Shown in pieces: positions 1,659 to 20,991 of a stretch of 30,763 nt of DNA; the stretch's first letter is position 1, and each line of letters opens with the position of its first letter. Location: IMG/VR virus record IMGVR_UViG_2718218434_000001; one strand, given 5' to 3'. The notes beneath the pieces were generated by a model that saw only the letters and a list, made by a program, of their open reading frames with translations, did not search any database and was not told the DNA's origin. The DNA comes from a virus (Duplodnaviria; Heunggongvirae; Uroviricota; Caudoviricetes). The translations under genes and the position numbers were made by a program.

Positions 1659-4130
1659 TTAAGAATCAGCCTGACTCGGGATCAGTTTTTGCCAGATAAC
1701 TGAAACGTATTTTGCCTGGTAACGGGCGTCATCAAGTGCATTATGGCGCTCACCTTCGAATGGAATAGCCGTTCTGGCATCGAAGTCTATGGCTTTCCCC
1801 AGCTCAACGATTGTGCGTACATCGCGATCGTTGTAGTAACGCCACGGGCAGGGGATCCCCTGCCGTTCGTATGAACGGCGCAAAATCGTGTTGTCGAAGT
1901 TGGCTCCATTTCCCCAAACCTGAACAAAAAATTCACCGGAGTTTTCGTCGATAAATTCCCGCAATTGTAACAGTGCATCATCTAACGGGATTTCATCGGT
2001 CATAATGGCAGATTGCGCTTCGCGTGATTGCTTAAGCCACCATTTAATGGTGTCCCGATCAATGACTCCGCCAGCAGTTTCCAGATCGATAGTCTTACTA
2101 AATTCCGGTCCCATATCTCCGGTTTGCGGATCGAAAAATATTGCACCTATTGAGATGATCGGGGCATCAGGATTTTTTCCCATGGTTTCAAGGTCGATCA
2201 TTAGATGGTCACACGTCCTGCTGGTGGATGTGATTTCGTGATGACCGTTCACCTTAATTGAGTGATCTGCCGTCTCGCCAGTTTCATTATCGCTATTGTG
2301 ATGCTGATTGCCGCCAGTGTTCTCCTTGTGTGGATGTTCAGCGCCTTCCATTTCCTCCGGATCATCTTCCTGAACTTCAACCTGATACTCTTCATCGAAT
2401 GTTTCCTGGTATGTTGCGTCGCCCATCACCGCGCCACAATCAGGGCAGTTGCCGCCGCCGGTCTGACCGCAGGCGGTGCAGACTTTTTCCACTTCCTGTT
2501 GCGCCACTGGTTCAGGCTGTTTCGTTTCTGGCTCGTTTTGTAACGCATTTGGGCTGTTTTGTTCCGCTTTTTGGTAGTTCCGTTCCGATTCATGCTGGTT
2601 CTGGTTCACAGAATCGCGGGTCTGGATCCCCTTAACCCATTTCGGATCATTCGGGTCACTAATCCCTTCAACAAATTCACCACGTGATGCAGCAAGCAAC
2701 TTATCGGCGTCAGGCTGGCTGATATTGGCTGCCTGCATAATTTTGTTTACTTCGTCAGCGGTAACTTTTATCGGTTCTGGTTGTTCTGAATCTTCAGCGG
2801 TATCTACATTTTGCGGTAAGCCCGTGTATGTGCCATTTTTTCGGGCAAAATATTCTTCTTTTGTGATTTCAGTGGCGCCAGCAGCCAGTGCCTTATCCAG
2901 ACCAGAAAGTTTGTTTGCGCGACCGTATTTTTCTCCGTCCTTATCTGCGAAGAGGAAATAGAACGGCCCCTCACGCTCTACAGATGGTTCAGCTTCCGGC
3001 GCGGTTTCATTTTTTGGGATATCAGATACCTCAGTTTCCACTGCATCAGTTTGTGTTTCTGATGACTGGAGAACATCAACAGTGCCCAGGTCTGTTTCTT
3101 CATTCTCAAACACGCCCTTTGTCGTCAGGTATTCGCAGATATATTTGTTCAGTGCTACGGGATCTTTGTGAATGTCGATCGGACGCTCACGGACAAGGCC
3201 AAAAATAGTTTGGCGGGCGTAGCGAAGGGCATCAGGCTGTTTGCGCATTGATGCCGAGATACGCTTCCAGTCTTCGCGGTCGTTGTCGATAACTTCTTTT
3301 TTTGCCCAGCGATGGATGCTGCCGTCAATGTTTCCGGCAACCACATCACCAGGCCAGAGAGCGTAGGCCAGTTCGTCATCCAGTGTTTTCCATGTCTGCT
3401 TGTATTCGCGATGAATGGCAGCAATGACCGGGCTGATTTTTCCTGTTGAATTTTCAGTGTACTGTTGATTGGCTCTGGTGCGGGCGAGATCAACAACAGA
3501 CGTGTATTTTCCGGTTTCATTGCGTTCACCTTCGCGACGTTTTTTCCAGATGCGCATCTCTGCCTGAATTTCGGGCCATTTAGCACCAGGAATACATTTA
3601 TGCTTAACCCACCCAATGGCGTGCAACTTAAGCTCCGGAAACATGGCGTTAACTTCTGGCATTTTCATCAACGCTTCAACGATATGTCCGTCGAATGTTG
3701 CCATGTCTTCCTGCAACAATTCCTGTGCGCTAATAACCATATCAACGGTGATGTTTTCACATGTGTCGAACTTAACCATGACAGCGTTCTGTACTTCAGG
3801 GGCCAGCTTGTCAAAAGTGACGTTCATCGGATCGGATTTAGTCTCAACCGGGACAAAAGAAGCAGACTCCTCATCCCAGCGGTTTTCCTGCATATATTCA
3901 GCATCCCATGAATCGAGGGCAGGGCGGGGTATGCCAGGTTTATCCTCGCAGACAATAAATTTATAAGCGCAGTCCTGAGCAGCCGGATAATGTTCCAGGA
4001 ACTGCCAGTGAAATTTTGCTCGAGCACGGCGTTCGTCGCCAGCTTCAATGGCAGTGGCTACAGCCACAGCGCCTTCTTCCCTTGTTGCCAGTTCGTCAGG
4101 AATAGCGGCGCAAATAAAGACTTTACTCAT
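1659..4130 (-). CDS. Large prophage exonuclease (exodeoxyribonuclease VIII-like / YdfE-like) with C-terminal DEDDh 3'-5' exonuclease domain
   Basis: 823-aa ORF; C-terminus shows the three DnaQ-like motifs (DLET, WGNGANFDN, HNALDDARY); acidic and Gln-rich low-complexity middle and a CxxC...CxxC zinc-ribbon-like segment; no recT-like partner present. Confidence 0.8.
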   Translation of the reverse strand: MSKVFICAAIPDELATREEGAVAVATAIEAGDERRARAKFHWQFLEHYPAAQDCAYKFIVCEDKPGIPRPALDSWDAEYMQENRWDEESASFVPVETKSDPMNVTFDKLAPEVQNAVMVKFDTCENITVDMVISAQELLQEDMATFDGHIVEALMKMPEVNAMFPELKLHAIGWVKHKCIPGAKWPEIQAEMRIWKKRREGERNETGKYTSVVDLARTRANQQYTENSTGKISPVIAAIHREYKQTWKTLDDELAYALWPGDVVAGNIDGSIHRWAKKEVIDNDREDWKRISASMRKQPDALRYARQTIFGLVRERPIDIHKDPVALNKYICEYLTTKGVFENEETDLGTVDVLQSSETQTDAVETEVSDIPKNETAPEAEPSVEREGPFYFLFADKDGEKYGRANKLSGLDKALAAGATEITKEEYFARKNGTYTGLPQNVDTAEDSEQPEPIKVTADEVNKIMQAANISQPDADKLLAASRGEFVEGISDPNDPKWVKGIQTRDSVNQNQHESERNYQKAEQNSPNALQNEPETKQPEPVAQQEVEKVCTACGQTGGGNCPDCGAVMGDATYQETFDEEYQVEVQEDDPEEMEGAEHPHKENTGGNQHHNSDNETGETADHSIKVNGHHEITSTSRTCDHLMIDLETMGKNPDAPIISIGAIFFDPQTGDMGPEFSKTIDLETAGGVIDRDTIKWWLKQSREAQSAIMTDEIPLDDALLQLREFIDENSGEFFVQVWGNGANFDNTILRRSYERQGIPCPWRYYNDRDVRTIVELGKAIDFDARTAIPFEGERHNALDDARYQAKYVSVIWQKLIPSQADS

Positions 4131-4770: not shown

Positions 4771-4827
4771 AAAACGGCGGCAGAGCAGTCACGGAGTAAA
4801 ACTGATACCGCCAAACGTCACCAGAAA
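4771..4827 (-). ncRNA. dicF: DicF small regulatory RNA (ftsZ-targeting), with 3' stem-loop and U-tract
   Basis: Minus-strand sequence TTTCTGGTGACGTTTGGCGGTATCAGTTTTACTCCGTGACTGCTCTGCCGCCGTTTTT matches the recalled DicF sequence; located between ydfB/C-like gene and dicB as in the dic operon. Confidence 0.8.
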
Positions 4828-8817: not shown

Positions 8818-10605
8818 TTAAGTCTGAGCCTCACTCTCTTGGCCATAAGTGGCTTGCCAGTATCTCGCCGTAGGGTTCATTAGAATGTGCAATACAAGCC
8901 ACCATGCAAAAATGCAGGGAGGTTGATTGTAGTAACCGGCAGGCACATATCCGTGAGCTAGTTGATTTCGTAAATCACCATAGATTTTATCTACCAGTAA
9001 GGCCTGAAGATTGCCAATTATGTCTACGCCGAAAGCTTCAATAATCAGTGGATTATCTAGTAATCCCTTGAGTCCATTTCGCTCTTGCGAACCGTCCCCG
9101 TGAAGCTGCGATGGTTCCTCACCTTTAATTTTAGCCACATATCTCAGACTATTTTCGATCTGGGGAATCAACACGTGGCATGCCGTCATAAAATCTCCAT
9201 TGAAACCGCAAACCATACCCTTGATGAAAAACTCTTCATGCCCAAACGGGATGAAGGGATGATTGATGAACATATCGCGAAAAAACGCCTCCGAGATTGG
9301 ATATTTCATTGTGATCTCATCTGTAGCAGGAATAATTTGCCCAGCTACTGCCAACTCATGGTCGATACGCATTCTCGTCATCATTATGGGCCAAATAACT
9401 GCCCCATTTGCATCATCAATCCCCAATCCTGCGGGTATGCGAGCAAGTGTCATTCCCTCATGATCAATATGTGTTGATCCAAACATCCAAGCTATGCTGT
9501 TGGCCTTTTGTTCTATTGCTTGAGCCTTAAGTCTCTCAATGCTGGTTGGCCGACAGACCAGCATCGCAAGTCTGAAAACCATATCAAACAAATCTCTTCC
9601 GACTACCCGACTCTTGGCTTGATGGACAATCTCACTAATATCTTGAGGGGGAGACTGAAGGATAGACATCTGGTGACGGGATTCGATTTGGTAATCACGC
9701 ATTTCTTCATACAGCGCAAGACGTTCTATTCGGGTTCCTGGAATATTAGCCAGTGCTTCAATAGCATTCTGCATGCAGGCTGCCGAAATCATACCGCCAT
9801 CTTGGAATTTTGATTCTTCCAGATGTGTATCGGCAAGAAGCCGCCAGAATTCAAACTGTGTATCTCTGTCACAGCACCTATTCGCAATCGGGATTGCGGT
9901 TTTACAGGCATCGACGGCAAATGAAAATAATTTTTGAGCCAGATAGTTTTTTGTCAGAAACAGGAGTTCCTGGGCAATAAAAGATGGCTCACTCACTTTA
10001 CAGTCGATATCGAGTTGCAGGAGTCGCAGCGGATAAGGTGAATCGCCTTGTTCTCTGGTACGTTCATACTCTGCTAGTAGATGTGCCGAAAGCTGATCAA
10101 ATTCATCCCTGAAATCAGTATTCTTTCGAAAAAAACAACACAGCCTAAGCGCACGCTCTAGGCGTTCTAAAGCACTAACCCACGTCCCTTGCGATGTCAT
10201 AATAGCTATACTGGACGCATAATAAGCACGGACTGCCAGCAAAGGAAAACGGATTCCACCAATTTTACGAACCCAAAGTGTATCAGCAATACGAGCTTGA
10301 AGTTCGGGTAGCTCTATCGTCGGGCAAAATTGAGAAAGTACCTCCAGCGACAACCCGTTAATGTCATCCGGAATTGCAGATCTACCTTGGCTGCTTTGAA
10401 AGCACGGACCAAATGGTACCTGTGGATTTTCGGGACGAAAGTGAAAACCGCAAATATGGGTTAGCAGTCTTATCTCCGCTCTTCCATCACCTAGGCTAGA
10501 AAGATACTTTGTGATATCAAAGCAGGTAACTGGCAGCTTACTCTGGATTAAGGGGGATAAATCAATAGTGTTAAGTTCGTCGAGGCTGATATTAATATCG
10601 TCCAT
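8818..10605 (-). CDS. Orphan 595-aa protein, unknown function; candidate single-gene anti-phage/abortive-infection effector with C-terminal HEPN-like R-x4-H motif
   Basis: Long ORF with strong RBS (AAGGTGA 4 nt before ATG); on the strand opposite to flanking early genes; flanked by noncoding spacers; C-terminal DLRNQLAHG fits the Rx4-6H HEPN signature; no other motif recognised. Confidence 0.8.
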   Translation of the reverse strand: MDDINISLDELNTIDLSPLIQSKLPVTCFDITKYLSSLGDGRAEIRLLTHICGFHFRPENPQVPFGPCFQSSQGRSAIPDDINGLSLEVLSQFCPTIELPELQARIADTLWVRKIGGIRFPLLAVRAYYASSIAIMTSQGTWVSALERLERALRLCCFFRKNTDFRDEFDQLSAHLLAEYERTREQGDSPYPLRLLQLDIDCKVSEPSFIAQELLFLTKNYLAQKLFSFAVDACKTAIPIANRCCDRDTQFEFWRLLADTHLEESKFQDGGMISAACMQNAIEALANIPGTRIERLALYEEMRDYQIESRHQMSILQSPPQDISEIVHQAKSRVVGRDLFDMVFRLAMLVCRPTSIERLKAQAIEQKANSIAWMFGSTHIDHEGMTLARIPAGLGIDDANGAVIWPIMMTRMRIDHELAVAGQIIPATDEITMKYPISEAFFRDMFINHPFIPFGHEEFFIKGMVCGFNGDFMTACHVLIPQIENSLRYVAKIKGEEPSQLHGDGSQERNGLKGLLDNPLIIEAFGVDIIGNLQALLVDKIYGDLRNQLAHGYVPAGYYNQPPCIFAWWLVLHILMNPTARYWQATYGQESEAQT

Positions 10606-11279
10606 GTCGTCACCTTGATGATTTGTTAATGCGGGGGCAACATTAATAAATGTACTTGAGACCGCAATTTGTCGATGGAGCCAACATTTATAACTATGTG
10701 CTTCTACCCTCTGAATTTTTACATGTGAATTGCTAGCTTGAATAGCTCTATCATTATATACGTGGCACTAAATTATGGCTGTTTTTCGCTCAAAGCGGAC
10801 TAGAAGGTTAGCTTGTGTCGGACTTTGCGTATTAAAAGAAGTGCTGGTGGTGACTAGTGGTTGTGCCCCATTTCCACAGAAAAAATCAGAGAAACTATAC
10901 CCAATAGTTGTATTGAATCACTGACGAGACAGCCTCATATTCATCAGGACTGGTCTACGTCCAATACAGGAGGTTGTGGTGCTGGTTCTCAAATGTGCGC
11001 TGGCTATTACGGCTGTAATGGCGATTTATTGTCTTGCTATTGTTCTTATGGATCGCCTTTCTGACTGATTTCATATTGGCGAGGTAACGGTAGTTAAGTA
11101 GAATGGCTGCGGGTGCTTGAGGCTATCTGCCTCGGGCATGAACACCAAAGGCAGATAGAGAAAAGCCCCAGTTAACATTACGCGTCCTGCAAGACGCTTA
11201 ACATTAATCTGAGGCCAATTTCATGCTAGACACATGTAGGTTAGCCTCTTACGTGCCGAAAGGCAAGGAGAAGCAGGCT

Positions 11280-11435
11280 ATGAAGCAGCAAAAGGCGATG
11301 TTAATCGCCCTGATCGTCATCTGTTTAACCGTCATAGTGACGGCACTGGTAACGAGGAAAGACCTCTGCGAGGTACGAATCCGAACCGGCCAGACGGAGG
11401 TCGCTGTCTTCACAGCTTACGAACCTGAGGAGTAA
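11280..11435 (+). CDS. hokD: Hok/Gef-family membrane toxin (HokD/RelF-like, 51 aa)
   Basis: Translation MKQQKAMLIALIVICLTVIVTALVTRKDLCEVRIRTGQTEVAVFTAYEPEE matches recalled HokD; structured leader upstream (10-bp inverted repeat CTATCTGCCT/AGGCAGATAG); no relBE upstream. Confidence 0.85.
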   Translation: MKQQKAMLIALIVICLTVIVTALVTRKDLCEVRIRTGQTEVAVFTAYEPEE

Positions 11436-11505
11436 GAGACCCGGCGAGGGAGAAATCCCTCGCCACCTCTGATGTGGCAGGCATCCTCAACGCACCCGCA
11501 CTTAA

Positions 11506-11530
11506 CCCGCTTCGGCGGGTTTTTGTTTTT
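11506..11530 (+). terminator. Rho-independent terminator after hok (CCCGC-TTCG-GCGGG + T-run)
   Basis: GC stem-loop followed by TTTTTGTTTTT, seen in sequence. Confidence 0.7.
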
Positions 11531-11651
11531 ATTTTCAACGCGTTTGAAGATCTGGACGGTGCCGGAATAGAATCAAAAATACTTAAGTAGCGCGCAGGGA
11601 TAAGAGGGATGGTCCCTTAAAGGGGAGAGCTAATTATCCGGAAGGATTCTG

Positions 11652-11903
11652 ATGATGAACATCGAAGAACTGCGTAAAATTTTTTGTGAAGATGGCCTCT
11701 ATGCTGTGTGCGTTGAAAATGGAAATCTTGTTAGTCATTACCGCATTATGTGTTTGCGAAAGAATGGGGCTGCGTTAATTAATTTTGTGGATGGTCGAGT
11801 GACAGACGGATTTATCTTGCGCGAAGGTGAGTTTGTCACTTCATTACAGGCACTGAAAGAGATCGGAATAAAAGCAGGCTTTTCAGCTTTTGCAGAAGAA
11901 TAA
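11652..11903 (+). CDS. Hypothetical small protein (83 aa), possibly Rem-like by position
   Basis: ORF with GGAAGGA RBS; sits between hok and ydfU where rem lies in K-12 Qin; sequence identity not verifiable from memory. Confidence 0.5.
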   Translation: MMNIEELRKIFCEDGLYAVCVENGNLVSHYRIMCLRKNGAALINFVDGRVTDGFILREGEFVTSLQALKEIGIKAGFSAFAEE

Positions 11904-12249: not shown

Positions 12250-13299
12250 GTGCGGGTATTACTTCGACCTGTTCTGGTACCGGAACTCGGGCTGGTGGTC
12301 GTTAAGCCGGGCCGTGAATCCATGCCGGTATTCCACAATACCCGGGTACTGGTGGAGCCGGAACCGAAAAGCATGCGTAATCTGCCGTCCGGGGTCGTTC
12401 CTGCCGTTCGCCAGCCGCTGGTGGAAGACAAAACATTGCTGCCGTTTTTCAGTAACGCACGGGTAATTCGTGCTGCTGGTGGTGCTGGTGCATTGTCTGA
12501 CTGGCTGTTGCGCCATATTAAATCCTGCCAGTGGCCACTCGGCGATTATCATCACAGCGAAACCGTTATTCACCGTTATGGTACCGGCGCAATGGTGTTG
12601 TGCTGGCACTGCGACAACCAGCTGCGTGACCAGACATCCGAATCACTCGAGCAACTTGCTCATCAAAACCTGTCAGCATGGATGATTGACGTCATCGGTC
12701 ACGCAATAAGCGGTACGCAGGAGCGTGAATTATCTCTGGCTGAATTATCCTGGTGGGCGGTCCGCAATCAGGTGGCGGACGCGCTACCGGAAGCGGTATT
12801 ACGTCGCTCGCTGGGATTACCAGCGGAAAAAAACTGCTCGGTGTACCGCGAAAGCGACATCGTACCGGGAGAGCAGACCGCCACCAGCATATTGAAACAG
12901 CGCACAAAAAATCTTGCACCGTTGCCTCACGCCCACCAGCAACAAAACCCATCACAGGAAAAGACGGTGGTAAGCATCACCGTTGATCCAGAGTCTCCGG
13001 AATCTTTCATGAAGCTGCCTAAACGTCACCGTTGGGTTAAGGAGAAATACACACGCTGGGTTAAGACACAGCCGTGTGCTTGCTGCGGTATGCCAGCCGA
13101 CGATCCGCATCATCTGATTGGTCACGGGCAGGGCGGAATGGGAACCAAAGCACATGATCTCTTTGTGTTGCCTTTGTGCAGAAAGCATCACGACGAGTTG
13201 CATACGGATACCGTGGCATTTGAAGAGAAGTATGGCTCCCAACTGGAGCTGATTTTTCGATTTATCGATCGCGCGCTGGCAATTGGTGTGCTGGCCTAA
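12250..13299 (+). CDS. ydfU: DUF968-family protein YdfU-like with C-terminal Cys/His (HNH-like) cluster
   Basis: 349-aa ORF, GTG start preceded by GGAGG; C-terminal CACCG...HHLIGHG...CRKHHDELH motif; position immediately upstream of Q as in nin regions. Confidence 0.7.
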   Translation: MRVLLRPVLVPELGLVVVKPGRESMPVFHNTRVLVEPEPKSMRNLPSGVVPAVRQPLVEDKTLLPFFSNARVIRAAGGAGALSDWLLRHIKSCQWPLGDYHHSETVIHRYGTGAMVLCWHCDNQLRDQTSESLEQLAHQNLSAWMIDVIGHAISGTQERELSLAELSWWAVRNQVADALPEAVLRRSLGLPAEKNCSVYRESDIVPGEQTATSILKQRTKNLAPLPHAHQQQNPSQEKTVVSITVDPESPESFMKLPKRHRWVKEKYTRWVKTQPCACCGMPADDPHHLIGHGQGGMGTKAHDLFVLPLCRKHHDELHTDTVAFEEKYGSQLELIFRFIDRALAIGVLA

Positions 13300-13316: not shown

Positions 13317-13693
13317 ATGCGTGATATTCAGATGGTTCTTGAGCGTTGGGGGCATGGGCGGCTAATAATCATGAAGATGTGACCTGGTCGTCCATTGCCG
13401 CCGGTTTTAAGGGATTAATTCCTTCAAAAGTAAGATCTCGTCCGCAATGCTGTGACGATGACGCGATGATCATTTGTGAATGTATGGCTCGCCTGAAAAA
13501 AAACAACAGCGATTTACATGATTTATTGGTGGACTATTATGTCGGCGGCATGACTTTTATGGCGCTTGCACGTAAGCATGGGCGATCTGATTGTTGGGTT
13601 GGCAGGATGCTCCAGAAAGCTGAGGGCGTAGTGGAGGGCATGCTGATGGTGTTGGATCTCCGATTGGAGATGGATGCTGATTGTTCGAAATAA
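13317..13693 (+). pseudogene. Late antiterminator Q (Q82/QuuD-like), N-terminal frameshift at a G5 tract
   Basis: ATG at 13317 with GGAG RBS encodes [11 protein letters not shown] then stops after 21 codons; the rest of Q ([15 protein letters not shown]...) continues in the -1 frame from 13346 with no ATG; frames join at G run 13348-13352. Confidence 0.6.
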
Positions 13694-13848: not shown

Positions 13849-14373
13849 TTATTGTTTAACCCATAATAGTTCATTGACATTGAATCCCAACTTTTGAGCG
13901 GTACGCACATAGTCTGCTTTTACATTATCTGGAATAGTTTGGGTCCTTGCCAGAATCCATAGGTATTCTCTGTTCGGACCACTGACAAGAGCATACTTAT
14001 ACTCATCATCCAGCTTGATTACATTATAGCCACCATAGAAGGGGCCAAAAAACGAAACTTTCAACGCTGCAGTTTTAGTATCTCCAGTAAAGTATGCTTT
14101 ACCTTCGCTCTCGCTCCATTTGTTTTTCGTTGGATCGTATCCACGGTTAAGTACGCGAATCCCTCCGTCGTTCCGTTTTTCATAAGTAGCGCTGACCTGT
14201 TCCAGACCACGTTCGAACCAGTTCTCGAGGCGAGCTATTTCATACCATTTTCCGAGGTAGCGGTTGGCGTCAAAATTTGTAATCGGCTGCACACCTTTAG
14301 GTGGTGTCGGGGCCTTACATGCTATAAGAGTGAAAGAGAGTGCAATGCCAGTCAACACAGGCCATAACTTCAT
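13849..14373 (-). CDS. blc: Outer-membrane lipoprotein Blc-like bacterial lipocalin
   Basis: Lipoprotein signal with lipobox (LIAC) and lipocalin motifs (NFDANRYLGKWYEIARL, KVSFFGPFYGGYNVI) matching recalled Blc. Confidence 0.85.
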   Translation of the reverse strand: MKLWPVLTGIALSFTLIACKAPTPPKGVQPITNFDANRYLGKWYEIARLENWFERGLEQVSATYEKRNDGGIRVLNRGYDPTKNKWSESEGKAYFTGDTKTAALKVSFFGPFYGGYNVIKLDDEYKYALVSGPNREYLWILARTQTIPDNVKADYVRTAQKLGFNVNELLWVKQ

Positions 14374-20216: not shown

Positions 20217-20579
20217 ATTAATATTAAATCGGATTATTTTTAGCGCTGAATGTGAAATTTAAATAAAAAGGACTCTTCCATGAGTCAAAATCCTTGAAAT
20301 CTTAAGGGTAAGATAAAAGGTCATTAGACAGAATGACACGTTTTATTAATAAATAAAGCTATTGTTTCATTCGTGTGTTTTTCTTTACAAAAGTAATCCT
20401 TGCTATGGTTGGTTAATCATGCGTTAATGGTGTTCTGGTTTGTTACAAAATTATCTGAAGCAGTCATTGTTATAATTTTATTATTTGTACCTCTTGAGAT
20501 TTCCTTGTTGGTTTTTCTCTCTGATATTTTTTTTCGGACCATTCTGCCCAAGGGCTAACTTCTTCAAAAGGTAATAATG

Positions 20580-20792
20580 ATGTCTAACAAAATGACTGGT
20601 TTAGTGAAATGGTTTAACCCTGAAAAAGGTTTTGGTTTCATCACGCCGAAAGATGGTAGCAAAGATGTGTTTGTCCATTTCTCAGCTATTCAGAGCAACG
20701 ATTTCAAAACGTTAACTGAGAATCAGGAAGTCGAATTTGGTATTGAGAACGGACCTAAAGGCCCCGCGGCTGTTCATGTTGTGGCACTTTGA
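20580..20792 (+). CDS. cspI: Cold-shock protein CspI-like (CspA family, 70 aa)
   Basis: Translation [38 protein letters not shown]... with RNP motifs; long AT-rich 5' UTR (20220-20576). Confidence 0.9.
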
Positions 20793-20991
20793 GGTAGAAA
20801 ATATTACAAACCATATTCACTTTAGATGCCCGTGTTGCCATGGTTCTCAGTATAGAACATCATCTTTTGATGTTTCTGACAGGAATCCTTTCGGGGCAAA
20901 ATGTATCTTTTGTAAATCAATGATGATTACATTTGATAATATTTCACAATACTTAAATGTTAGCCGTCTATCGTTAGATTTAAGAAAGTGA
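20776..20991 (+). CDS. Candidate small zinc-ribbon protein (CxxC...CxxC) downstream of cspI (YnfQ/YmcF-like?)
   Basis: ORF overlapping cspI end in another frame; contains CPCCHG and CIFCKS pairs; start codon uncertain. Confidence 0.3.

Follow-up and report, generated by a model that had tools for sequence, protein, structure and literature searches.

Does the DNA to the right of a 595-aa gene in IMG/VR record IMGVR_UViG_2718218434_000001 encode a self-contained hok toxin locus with its own Sok antisense RNA, and where does such a locus begin and end? The window referred to below is the whole stretch of 30,763 nucleotides that was analysed. A first-pass annotation had drawn a stand-alone hok locus over positions 10620-11530, with an intact Hok peptide, a highly structured leader, a terminator and a possible antisense RNA on the minus strand, and had contrasted it with the relBE-hokD arrangement of E. 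coli K-12 Qin. Based on family models, comparison with known loci and predicted folds, the locus at ~11076-11531 was identified, with a probability of about 0.9, as a type I toxin-antitoxin cassette (hok/mok/sok, hokD/hokW subgroup) that is complete and lies in the early-right part of a lambdoid, Qin-like E. coli prophage. It is an ordinary full copy of a well-known cassette, and the exact locus has already been catalogued (hokW/sokW; NRG857c hok-4). The sole new item near it is a putative gene of 29 codons for a membrane peptide, which lies directly upstream and had been overlooked.

Identity and extent of the hok locus

The covariance-model search that had been suggested as a check was run, and Rfam RF01794 matched the plus strand at 11111-11285 over the full model (1-157), scoring 118.3 bits (gathering score 59). 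The model has the orientation of hok mRNA and its end coincides with the AUG of hok; its coordinates therefore belong to the leader and not to Sok. The hit and the 94% DNA identity to hokW/mokW/sokW of 933W (AF125520), which runs over 11092-11507 from the -10 box through the fbi box, bear out a self-contained locus of the hok/sok type. Its extent, in contrast, had to be corrected to ~11076-11531, and 10620-11110 lies outside the hok transcript. At the sequence level, the cassette elements (Table 1) are shown to be present at the positions given, to be complementary and to be conserved.

Table 1. Features of the hok locus and its left flank, by position in the window
Feature	Position	Strand	Details and basis
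595-aa DUF7380/DUF4209 cargo gene, PADLOC candidate defence protein PDC-S39	8818-10605	-	Pfam, PADLOC
Conserved block, essentially unannotated	10781-11075	+	Upstream of hok promoter; boundary hairpin ~10781-10803, variable cargo leftwards
Unannotated 29-codon hydrophobic ORF (MLVLKCALAITAVMAIYCLAIVLMDRLSD)	10979-11068	+	GTG start; SD AGGAGG 10968-10973; outside hok/sok
hok promoter	11076-11104	+	-35 TTGGCG 11076-11081, spacer 17 nt, -10 TAGAAT 11099-11104; promoter scan
Full-length hok mRNA, ~417 nt	11111-11527	+	Putative 5' end from promoter and Rfam position 1; 3' end from terminator
tac (translational activator element), GGGUGCUUGAGG	11111-11122	+	Predicted pairing with fbi
Sok antisense RNA, ~71-82 nt	11150-11231	-	5' end 11231; 3' end between 11161 and 11150
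ucb (upstream complementary box, anti-SD for mok), AAGCCCCAG	11163-11171	+	Predicted folds
mok Shine-Dalgarno GAGG	11211-11214	+	8 nt 5' of mok ATG (11223)
mok reading frame, 70 codons	11223-11435	+	In frame with hok, common stop codon; ORF list
sokT loop CUAGACA	11226-11232	+	Complementary to Sok 5' end
Putative Sok promoter	11238-11266	-	-35 TTGCCT 11266-11261, spacer 17 nt, -10 TAACCT 11243-11238
dcb (downstream complementary box), GCCUC	11244-11248	+	Predicted folds
hok toxin gene, 51 aa, same protein as K-12 HokD	11280-11435	+	SD GGAG 11267-11270
UACG at Tyr47	11418-11421	+	Conserved Tyr/Cys position near Hok C-terminus, read directly
Stable 9-bp hairpin	11443-11464	+	Folds
fbi (fold-back inhibitory element), CCUCAAcGCACCC	11485-11497	+	Pairs with tac
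Intrinsic terminator	11504-11531	+	7-bp GC-rich stem 11504-11521, then TTTTGTTTTT; terminator scan

The ORF list and Pfam (HOK_GEF, PF01848; 1.2e-23, 82.9 bits, cut-off 22) confirmed that the Hok peptide is intact. The hok coding sequence is identical in K-12 across its length, and in identical loci the gene is named hokD by PGAP. UACG is the TadA recognition motif, and the one at Tyr47 falls at the Tyr/Cys position at which recoding of HokD has been reported. In the published cases, A-to-I editing of hokD affects the conserved position-46 cysteine (PMC12214031; bioRxiv 10.1101/2025.08.07.668861). The 3' UTR of hok gave a weak Rfam match to isrK (25.7 bits against 50).

An identical in-frame layout of mok and hok is found in K-12 mokC/hokC, and the homologous ORF is annotated as mokW in 933W. 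In the hok/sok family, hok translation is coupled to that of mok. The mok frame and its own Shine-Dalgarno sequence are present here, and the same coupling is proposed.

The hok mRNA and its predicted folding switch

The hok -10 box is equally placed in 933W hokW and K-12 hokC, and position 1 of the Rfam model lies 7 nt 3' of it, which puts the transcription start at ~11111 and gives a leader of 169 nt (11111-11279). The mRNA 11111-11527 folds with an MFE of -176 kcal/mol (z -7.97; none of 100 shuffled sequences folded as well), and the leader by itself gave a z of -3.95. The structured leader of the first-pass annotation thus stood in that the inverted repeats are strong and the fold is far from random, but all of the structure lies at or to the right of 11111. 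The terminator reported after hok was also found, as an intrinsic stem followed by a T run.

In the MFE structure of the full-length mRNA, tac and fbi form 12 pairs (11111-11122 with 11485-11497), which were retained in 98% of cells over 77 distinct copies, while ucb pairs with the mok Shine-Dalgarno region at 11209-11215. On removal of the 3' end, tac is predicted to move to 11163-11169 in ucb, and in the trimmed and leader-only folds dcb pairs with the mok Shine-Dalgarno GAGGC (11211-11215). The sokT loop is exposed in the 3'-trimmed fold only (ViennaRNA; 11111 to 11470-11480, and leader alone). The hairpin at 11443-11464 is a probable road-block to 3' exonucleolytic trimming, by analogy with R1 (PMC1635323), and the closed-to-open switch seen in the predicted folds is the one described for R1 (PMC9841398, PMC1635323). 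Tests for compensatory changes in tac/fbi and ucb/SD revealed a single compensatory pair per set. Since the copies are too similar for such changes, the structural support is thermodynamic and drawn from the family-level literature.

The predicted Sok antisense RNA

A Sok-like RNA had been expected on the minus strand near 11150-11280. This was borne out by sequence comparison, and the candidate RNA could be delimited to 11231 at its 5' end and ~11150-11161 at its 3' end. Three independent mappings concur on a 5' end at 11231: 933W sokW maps to 11161-11231, the 5' end of K-12 sokC corresponds to mok nt +9, which is 11231, and the anti-Sok PNA used on R1 (TATGTCTAGTC), which is complementary to the 5' tail of Sok that was targeted experimentally, aligns with the homologous CTAG-NC. 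Sok is predicted to begin with a single-stranded 5' tail (GUCUAGCAUGA...), to continue into a long, stable hairpin and to end in a GGGGCUUUUCU tail (fold z -4.58). Its putative promoter was read by eye at the correct distance from the mapped 5' end; the -10 box TAACCT agrees with the consensus at only 3 of 6 positions and falls below the scan threshold, and the promoter is therefore absent from the promoter-scan list.

All sequence elements required by the R1 paradigm are there, and by that paradigm the cassette would function as follows. The sigma-70 promoter would give a stable ~417-nt hok mRNA in which the 5' tac pairs with the 3' fbi, the mok Shine-Dalgarno sequence is held by ucb, and access is barred to both ribosomes and Sok. 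Slow 3' trimming to the 11443-11464 hairpin would liberate tac, which would capture ucb; dcb would then take up the mok Shine-Dalgarno sequence, and the start region of mok (sokT) would be displayed in the loop of a hairpin. In cells that carry the locus, short-lived Sok made from the minus-strand promoter would dock on the sokT loop via its 5' tail; it would block mok and therefore the coupled translation of hok, and the duplex is proposed to be degraded. Were the supply of Sok to end, by prophage loss or by a transcription shut-off such as that of phage infection, the trimmed mRNA would be translated and the 51-aa Hok membrane peptide would kill or arrest the cell.

Comparison with other hok systems

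The locus of 933W has the same mok and hok frames and an identically placed sokW, but differs in the -35 region and the terminator. The two also differ in context: the locus described here lies between a cargo slot and rem/ydfU of a Qin-like prophage, whereas that of 933W is found near the right genome end. The leader of NRG857c hok-4, an intact hokD homologue according to the literature, is 100% identical to that in the window.

R1 hok/sok (parB), the experimental paradigm, shares all of these elements and the predicted closed-to-open switch, and there too the 5' tail of Sok is directed at the start of mok, within the homologous CTAG-NC. In R1, mok is out of frame with hok. The mok of the window is in frame, as in K-12 mokC/hokC; Sok is ~71-82 nt here and 64 nt in R1, and R1 is a plasmid locus while this one is a single prophage-borne copy. 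The K-12 hokC/mokC/sokC (gef) locus is alike in its collinear leader, in-frame mok and annotated sokC. Relative to sokC, the Sok hairpin of the window has an 18-nt insertion. The K-12 hokC copy is cut by IS186 just past the gene and has thereby lost fbi; the window copy is complete.

As claimed at first pass, no RelB- or RelE-like ORF lies upstream of hok, and a tblastn search of the whole 30.7-kb window with K-12 RelB and RelE returned noise only (E of at least 4.9). The contrast drawn with K-12 relBE-hokD is correct in that the layouts differ, but the absence of relBE is no oddity. The K-12 Qin locus (relBEF) shares the identical Hok protein, the 3' UTR, fbi and terminator, and has rem and ydfU downstream; its identity to the window starts at 11266, 14 nt 5' of the hok ATG. 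Since the similarity begins only there, the promoter, tac, ucb, mok start, sokT and sok gene have been lost in K-12 Qin, where relB-relE replace them together with the Sok -10 box. With no relBE in the window, this makes relBE-hokD the truncated and rearranged derivative. A relBE-hokD operon has relB and relE directly upstream of a leaderless hok, whereas hok of the window has a full leader. Among 5426 complete E. coli genomes, a leader of the window type was found in 4283 and a K-12-type relE-hokD junction in 1166.

Conservation and activity of the cassette

Intactness of sequence is no guarantee of activity, and the cassette could be a silent, decaying passenger, as were chromosomal hok loci tested earlier. 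In a published survey chromosomal hokA, hokB and hokC gave neither post-segregational killing nor activation by rifampicin, and all K-12 hok loci are reported as inactivated, which is put down to IS elements, point mutation or genetic rearrangement (Pedersen & Gerdes 1999, cited in PMC7232551 and PMC12214031). Signs of decay occur in this family also, namely the truncated relE-hokD junction in the 1166 genomes mentioned above, an internal deletion of hok in ETEC4077, and IS elements within or beside the region in certain strains. However, dozens of distinct copies and thousands of genomes retain the mok frame and the hok ORF together with both promoters and every regulatory box, and the hok ORF is intact in ~100 of 110 viral-contig copies. 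In addition, the HokD peptide is toxic upon overexpression (same survey), and R1 hok/Sok lacking the Sok promoter is toxic from one copy on the chromosome (PMC9841398). We regard a silent passenger as unlikely.

The neighbouring cargo slot

The product of the 595-aa gene matched the PDC-S39 model over residues 43-581 (1.9e-102) and is thus a candidate defence protein; elsewhere the same slot contains Tmn, PDC-S15 or NsnA/PD-T4-2-like proteins. Adjacency to this slot raises the reading that hok serves mainly in phage exclusion by abortive infection, as a module of the adjoining prophage defence hotspot, rather than in prophage retention. Phage defence by Hok has been reported in the literature, and hok is enriched in prophages according to the survey. 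The same survey, however, found that hok is not enriched beside defence systems. Whereas the cargo varies, the hok module does not, which suggests that it belongs to the backbone and not to the cargo, and the same module is present in the other context of 933W. We regard exclusion as the main role as unlikely.

The upstream region and a 29-codon open reading frame

The fold of 10620-11110 is matched by that of shuffled sequences (z +0.61). This stretch lies 5' of the hok promoter and is not unusually structured, all of the structure noted being confined to 11111 and beyond; the "upstream 600 bp" is therefore not a leader. The only pair that reaches to the left of 11111, an inverted repeat of 11 nt that links 10927-10937 to the tac region, was set aside as being close to chance by our own rough estimate. 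That 10620-11110 is an extended structured leader of a transcript starting far upstream, as the first-pass annotation implied, is very improbable: hok has the plus strand in common with the small ORF and with the phage genes downstream, and read-through of an early-right operon could lengthen transcripts in lytic growth, but besides the fold result the promoter is at 11076-11104, the family model begins at 11111, homology to 933W hokW begins at 11092, and the blunt tac/fbi pairing demands tac at the 5' end.

A block at ~10781-11075 was matched in 1653 of the 5426 genomes, mostly at 90-95% identity, and no feature is annotated there. E. coli ATCC 25922 ("Seattle 1946") is 100% identical to the window over 10606-11073. 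Within the block, an ORF of 29 codons preceded by a consensus Shine-Dalgarno sequence had been overlooked at first pass. The 29 aa are intact in 125 of 127 copies, with conservative variants only, and the AGGAGG, 5 nt before the GTG, is invariant. Distinct variants comprised 12 synonymous and 12 non-synonymous changes and no stops, where 27% synonymous is expected (p 0.013). The ORF ends 8 nt 5' of the hok -35 box, and hok follows in 103 of 110 loci. These data point, with modest statistical support, to purifying selection and a translatable start, as for type I toxins in general. Three other ORFs were rejected: a 49-aa ORF (10775-10924) has a 14-nt indel inside it in several copies, the frame of a 67-aa ORF (10861-11064) gives 4 synonymous and 20 non-synonymous changes, and a 39-aa ORF on the minus strand (10955-11074) has no Shine-Dalgarno sequence and its ATG is missing in most copies.

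Relatives of the 29-aa peptide were sought by degenerate DNA pattern scans and by look-up of the exact sequence, the latter returning database entries named "hypothetical" or "membrane protein" only. No family was found in Rfam, Pfam, PHROGs or PADLOC, no paper by full-text literature search, and no convincing promoter by promoter scan or reading of the alignment. The local fold is unexceptional (z -0.67, not more stable than shuffled sequences). RNAalifold on the upstream block gave a plausible occlusion of the Shine-Dalgarno sequence; covariation was absent (1 of 47 pairs). A minus-strand promoter overlapping the hok promoter, which could serve an antitoxin RNA for this ORF, is a weak candidate only. 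A speculative proposal, to which we give a low probability, is that the ORF encodes a membrane-active peptide, which might be another toxin or might modulate Hok, and that it forms a two-peptide cassette with hok/sok at the constant right-hand edge of a hotspot for prophage defence genes. Such a cassette might be controlled by occlusion of the Shine-Dalgarno sequence and by an antisense RNA from a promoter back-to-back with that of hok.

Implications

The flagged hok feature is one further intact cassette of the hokD/hokW type and adds little that is new. The K-12 relBE-hokD layout, taken as the reference in the reading of this locus, is the rearranged exception. For annotation, the Rfam "sok" match must not be taken as giving the coordinates or strand of Sok, and in thousands of genomes PGAP marks the hok coding sequence only, leaving mok, Sok and the regulatory boxes unmarked. 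The 29-codon ORF is a cheap candidate for ribosome profiling and toxicity work. The constant segment of small ORF, hok and rem/ydfU forms the right edge of a slot which often holds known or candidate anti-phage genes, and is thus a useful anchor for mining its cargo.

The hok locus and its predicted folding switch

The feature flagged at 10620-11530, described in the first-pass annotation as a stand-alone hok locus without relBE, is a textbook hok/mok/sok cassette, already catalogued. The Hok peptide is indeed intact (51-aa ORF at 11280-11435; Pfam HOK_GEF, 1.2e-23) and followed by a terminator (11504-11521 plus T run, terminator scan), while a tblastn search of the K-12 RelB and RelE proteins against the whole window returned only noise. 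The covariance-model search that had been proposed gave a match to Rfam RF01794 over the full model length (11111-11285, plus strand; 118.3 bits against a gathering score of 59). Since the consensus of this model stops at the hok AUG, it represents the hok leader in the mRNA sense and not Sok RNA itself. Its position 1 lies 7 nt past the end of the hok promoter, the -10 position of which is common to the window, hokW of phage 933W and K-12 hokC.

The highly structured leader with inverted repeats was only partly borne out. From 11111 onward the structured RNA is real, the 417-nt stretch 11111-11527 folding at -176 kcal/mol (z -8.0) and the 169-nt leader alone with z -3.95, whereas the 491 nt of 10620-11110 fold no better than shuffled sequence (z +0.61). 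Significant inverted repeats are confined to 11112-11312. The structure thus starts at 11111, and the flagged interval begins about 490 nt too far to the left.

Folding either the leader by itself or a transcript cut back at its 3' end to 11480 or shorter predicts an open form in which AAGCCCC (11163-11169) takes up the 5' end, the dcb element GCCUC (11244-11248) binds GAGGC (11211-11215) and the 7-nt loop CUAGACA (11226-11232) becomes exposed. This predicted closed-to-open switch is the one described for the hok mRNA of plasmid R1 (PMC9841398; PMC1635323). A stable hairpin at 11443-11464 is so placed that it could serve as a road-block to 3' trimming. The layout of mok and hok is that of K-12 mokC/hokC. 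Among 110 viral-contig copies (77 distinct), the hok ORF is intact at 51 aa in about 100 and the tac/fbi pairs are retained in 98% of cells; these copies were too similar to yield compensatory changes.

Features of the window, with coordinates, strand and basis
Feature	Coordinates	Strand	Basis or remark
DicF sRNA	4775-4826	-	Rfam, 72.5 bits
Small ORF, 29 codons	GTG 10979 to TGA 11068	+	hydrophobic single-helix peptide, MLVLKCALAITAVMAIYCLAIVLMDRLSD
hok promoter, sigma-70-like	11076-11104	+	promoter scan; TTGGCG, 17 nt, TAGAAT
tac	11111-11122	+	GGGUGCUUGAGG; pairs with fbi in the minimum-energy fold of the full transcript
mok Shine-Dalgarno	11211-11214	+	GAGG; paired with ucb (11165-11171) in the closed predicted fold
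mok, 70 codons	start 11223	+	in frame with hok
Putative Sok promoter	11266-11261 and 11243-11238	-	TTGCCT, 17 nt, TAACCT; read upstream of the mapped 5' end
fbi	11485-11497	+	CCUCAAcGCACCC; tac partner
rem	11652-11903		ORF list / Pfam
ydfU homologue (DUF968)	12250-13299		ORF list / Pfam
Q antiterminator	13346-13693		ORF list / Pfam
cspA-type thermoregulator leader	20422-20838	+	Rfam, 109.8 bits

Two further observations were made on the hok transcript. Its 3' UTR (11444-11525, plus strand), comprising the road-block hairpin, fbi and the terminator, gave a full-length, sub-threshold match to Rfam isrK (25.7 bits against a gathering score of 50). IsrK is an Hfq-binding sRNA of the Salmonella Gifsy-1 prophage, and the match may be a chance likeness of architecture or a hint that IsrK originated from a hok 3' end. 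The codon of Hok Tyr47, UAC followed by G (11418-11421, plus strand), lies at the conserved Tyr/Cys position of reported A-to-I recoding, and UACG is the TadA recognition motif. In K-12, 6% editing has been described for hokD (PMC12214031).

Predicted Sok antisense RNA

A Sok-like RNA had been expected on the minus strand near 11150-11280 but not delimited; that expectation proved correct, and its probable limits can now be drawn. Three mappings agree in placing the predicted 5' end at 11231. The annotated sokW of phage 933W aligns without indels to 11161-11231 (minus strand), and the annotated K-12 sokC has its 5' end across from mok nucleotide +9, corresponding to 11231. The 11-mer anti-Sok PNA TATGTCTAGTC, used to target the 5' tail of R1 Sok, which was defined experimentally, corresponds to the sense strand at the mok AUG and ends at the C two bases past CTAG, the homologous C in the window being 11231. 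The putative Sok promoter has a weak consensus and falls below the promoter-scan threshold. The 82-nt Sok candidate (11231 to 11150) is predicted to fold (z -4.6) into a long hairpin flanked by a single-stranded 5' tail and a GGGGCUUUUCU tail; over its first six nucleotides it is complementary to the loop that trimming of the mRNA uncovers.

Prophage setting and comparison with K-12

The gene order in the window is DUF977 gene, 595-aa gene (minus strand), hok, rem, 92-aa ORF, ydfU homologue and Q antiterminator; the same genes are annotated in the same order in RefSeq records with identical DNA. The order in the K-12 cryptic prophage Qin is cspB, cspF, ydfT, ydfU, rem, hokD, relE, relB. Based on these matches in gene content and order, the window is a Qin-like lambdoid prophage of E. 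coli, in which DicF and a cspA-type leader are both expected. A 174-aa lipocalin with a lipoprotein-like signal sequence (13849-14373, minus strand; Pfam Lipocalin_2, 7.5e-43) is encoded in the opposite orientation in the interval from the Q antiterminator to the csp genes, and its gene is likely further prophage cargo.

In the alignment with K-12 Qin, identity starts only at 11266, a point 14 nt short of the hok ATG, and continues without interruption across hok, the 3' UTR and rem; to the left of that point K-12 carries relE and relB. K-12 hokD has therefore lost the promoter, tac, ucb, mok start, sokT and sok, and the contrast with K-12 stems from this truncation, not from an oddity of the window locus. 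The literature (Pedersen & Gerdes 1999, as cited in PMC7232551 and PMC12214031) attributes the inactivation of K-12 hok loci to insertion elements, to point mutation or to genetic rearrangement. The IS inactivation of K-12 hokA, hokC and hokE is echoed near window-type loci: the 595-aa gene is split by IS1203 in strain 720632 (locus L001, 900-4000), and IS1B lies within the matched interval of strain PigCaeca_1. A natural toxin-loss allele is found in E. coli ETEC4077 (locus L009, ~3360-3420), where a clean hok deletion joins window-equivalent 11129 to ~11467; the tac-stem region is fused to sequence just before fbi, and promoter, tac, fbi and terminator are kept.

In 5426 complete E. coli genomes, at a probe coverage of at least 80%, the K-12-type relE-hokD junction was present in 1166, the whole interval 10606-11651 in 758 and the window-type leader (11092-11279) in 4283, with a median of two copies each. 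The related module occurs in 110 phage records, including Stx phages, where it is annotated mokW/hokW/sokW. The leader of AIEC strain NRG857c, for which a literature listing gives an intact hokD homologue, is 100% identical to that of the window.

Upstream block and cargo slot

The first 175 nt past the 595-aa gene (10606-10780) co-occur with that gene. The following block (~10781-11075) is conserved separately: 1653 genomes contain a match to it, for the most part at 90-95% identity and with no feature annotated on it, and it also occurs in phages Tritos, mEp460_ev081 and Evi. To its left, gene content varies by genome, in either orientation, and 94 ORF clusters were counted within 3.5 kb upstream in the 77 loci with enough flank. 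The hypervariable slot bounded by the DUF977 gene and the block (window 8818-10605, with equivalents in related loci L004-L126) resembles a prophage hotspot for defence or moron genes. The 595-aa protein of the window is PADLOC candidate PDC-S39 (1.9e-102); other occupants match Tmn, PDC-S15, NsnA/PD-T4-2-like proteins (among them a DUF262 protein) and, weakly, PDC-S21, and an MFS-like membrane protein and DUF5677 are among the remaining ones. With variable occupants left of a constant block, hok stands on the unchanging right-hand side of a cargo slot in which defence genes are often found, which explains the adjacency of hok and the 595-aa gene that had been singled out.

The portion 10781-10927 (plus strand) is conserved and non-coding, tolerating a 14-nt indel at ~10843-10856. 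The left edge of the block is a hairpin (~10781-10803, GTCCGCTT...AAGCGGAC), in whose 5' arm pairing is kept despite otherwise variable sequence, partly by G-U pairs workable on the plus strand only. This region may mark a recombination boundary for the cargo slot, or may work as an RNA element.

Small ORF upstream of hok

Within the block lies a small ORF that probably encodes a small membrane protein. An invariant AGGAGG (10968-10973) lies five bases before its start, and 8 nt separate its end from the hok -35 box. Of 127 copies, 125 retain the ORF intact, and its 15 peptide variants are all conservative. In the part outside the search-pattern constraint, distinct variants numbered 12 synonymous to 12 non-synonymous without stops, against an expected synonymous share of 27% (p 0.013); other frames had a poorer variant pattern or lost the start codon. 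One copy (L062) is homologous only from ~10928, so the minimal unit is ~10928-11075. The consensus fold hides the Shine-Dalgarno sequence and start codon, with ordinary stability and no covariation support.

At one genome per species, the ORF was found in Escherichia and Shigella only, plus three short MAG contigs. It is not called by PGAP, no family in Pfam, PHROG, PADLOC or Rfam covers it, a full-text search of published papers did not find the peptide, and exact GenBank matches are named only "hypothetical protein" or "membrane protein". The next gene is hok in 103 of 110 loci. A second toxin and a tie to hok function are candidate roles.

Proposed function

The standard hok/sok mechanism is the best explanation of the cassette, all sequence requirements being present; we infer its transcription, processing, single-copy toxicity and biological role. 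The closed, stable hok mRNA would be activated slowly through 3' trimming and restrained by the unstable Sok RNA, and Hok would kill the cell once Sok synthesis stops. Some weight is kept by the alternative that the cassette is sequence-intact yet a silent relic, because other chromosomal hok loci gave no post-segregational killing in earlier tests; HokD is, however, toxic when expressed. A role in abortive infection is possible. In a large survey, hok was enriched in prophages but showed no enrichment beside defence systems. The only leads that merit a follow-up experiment are the small ORF and the setting beside a cargo slot.
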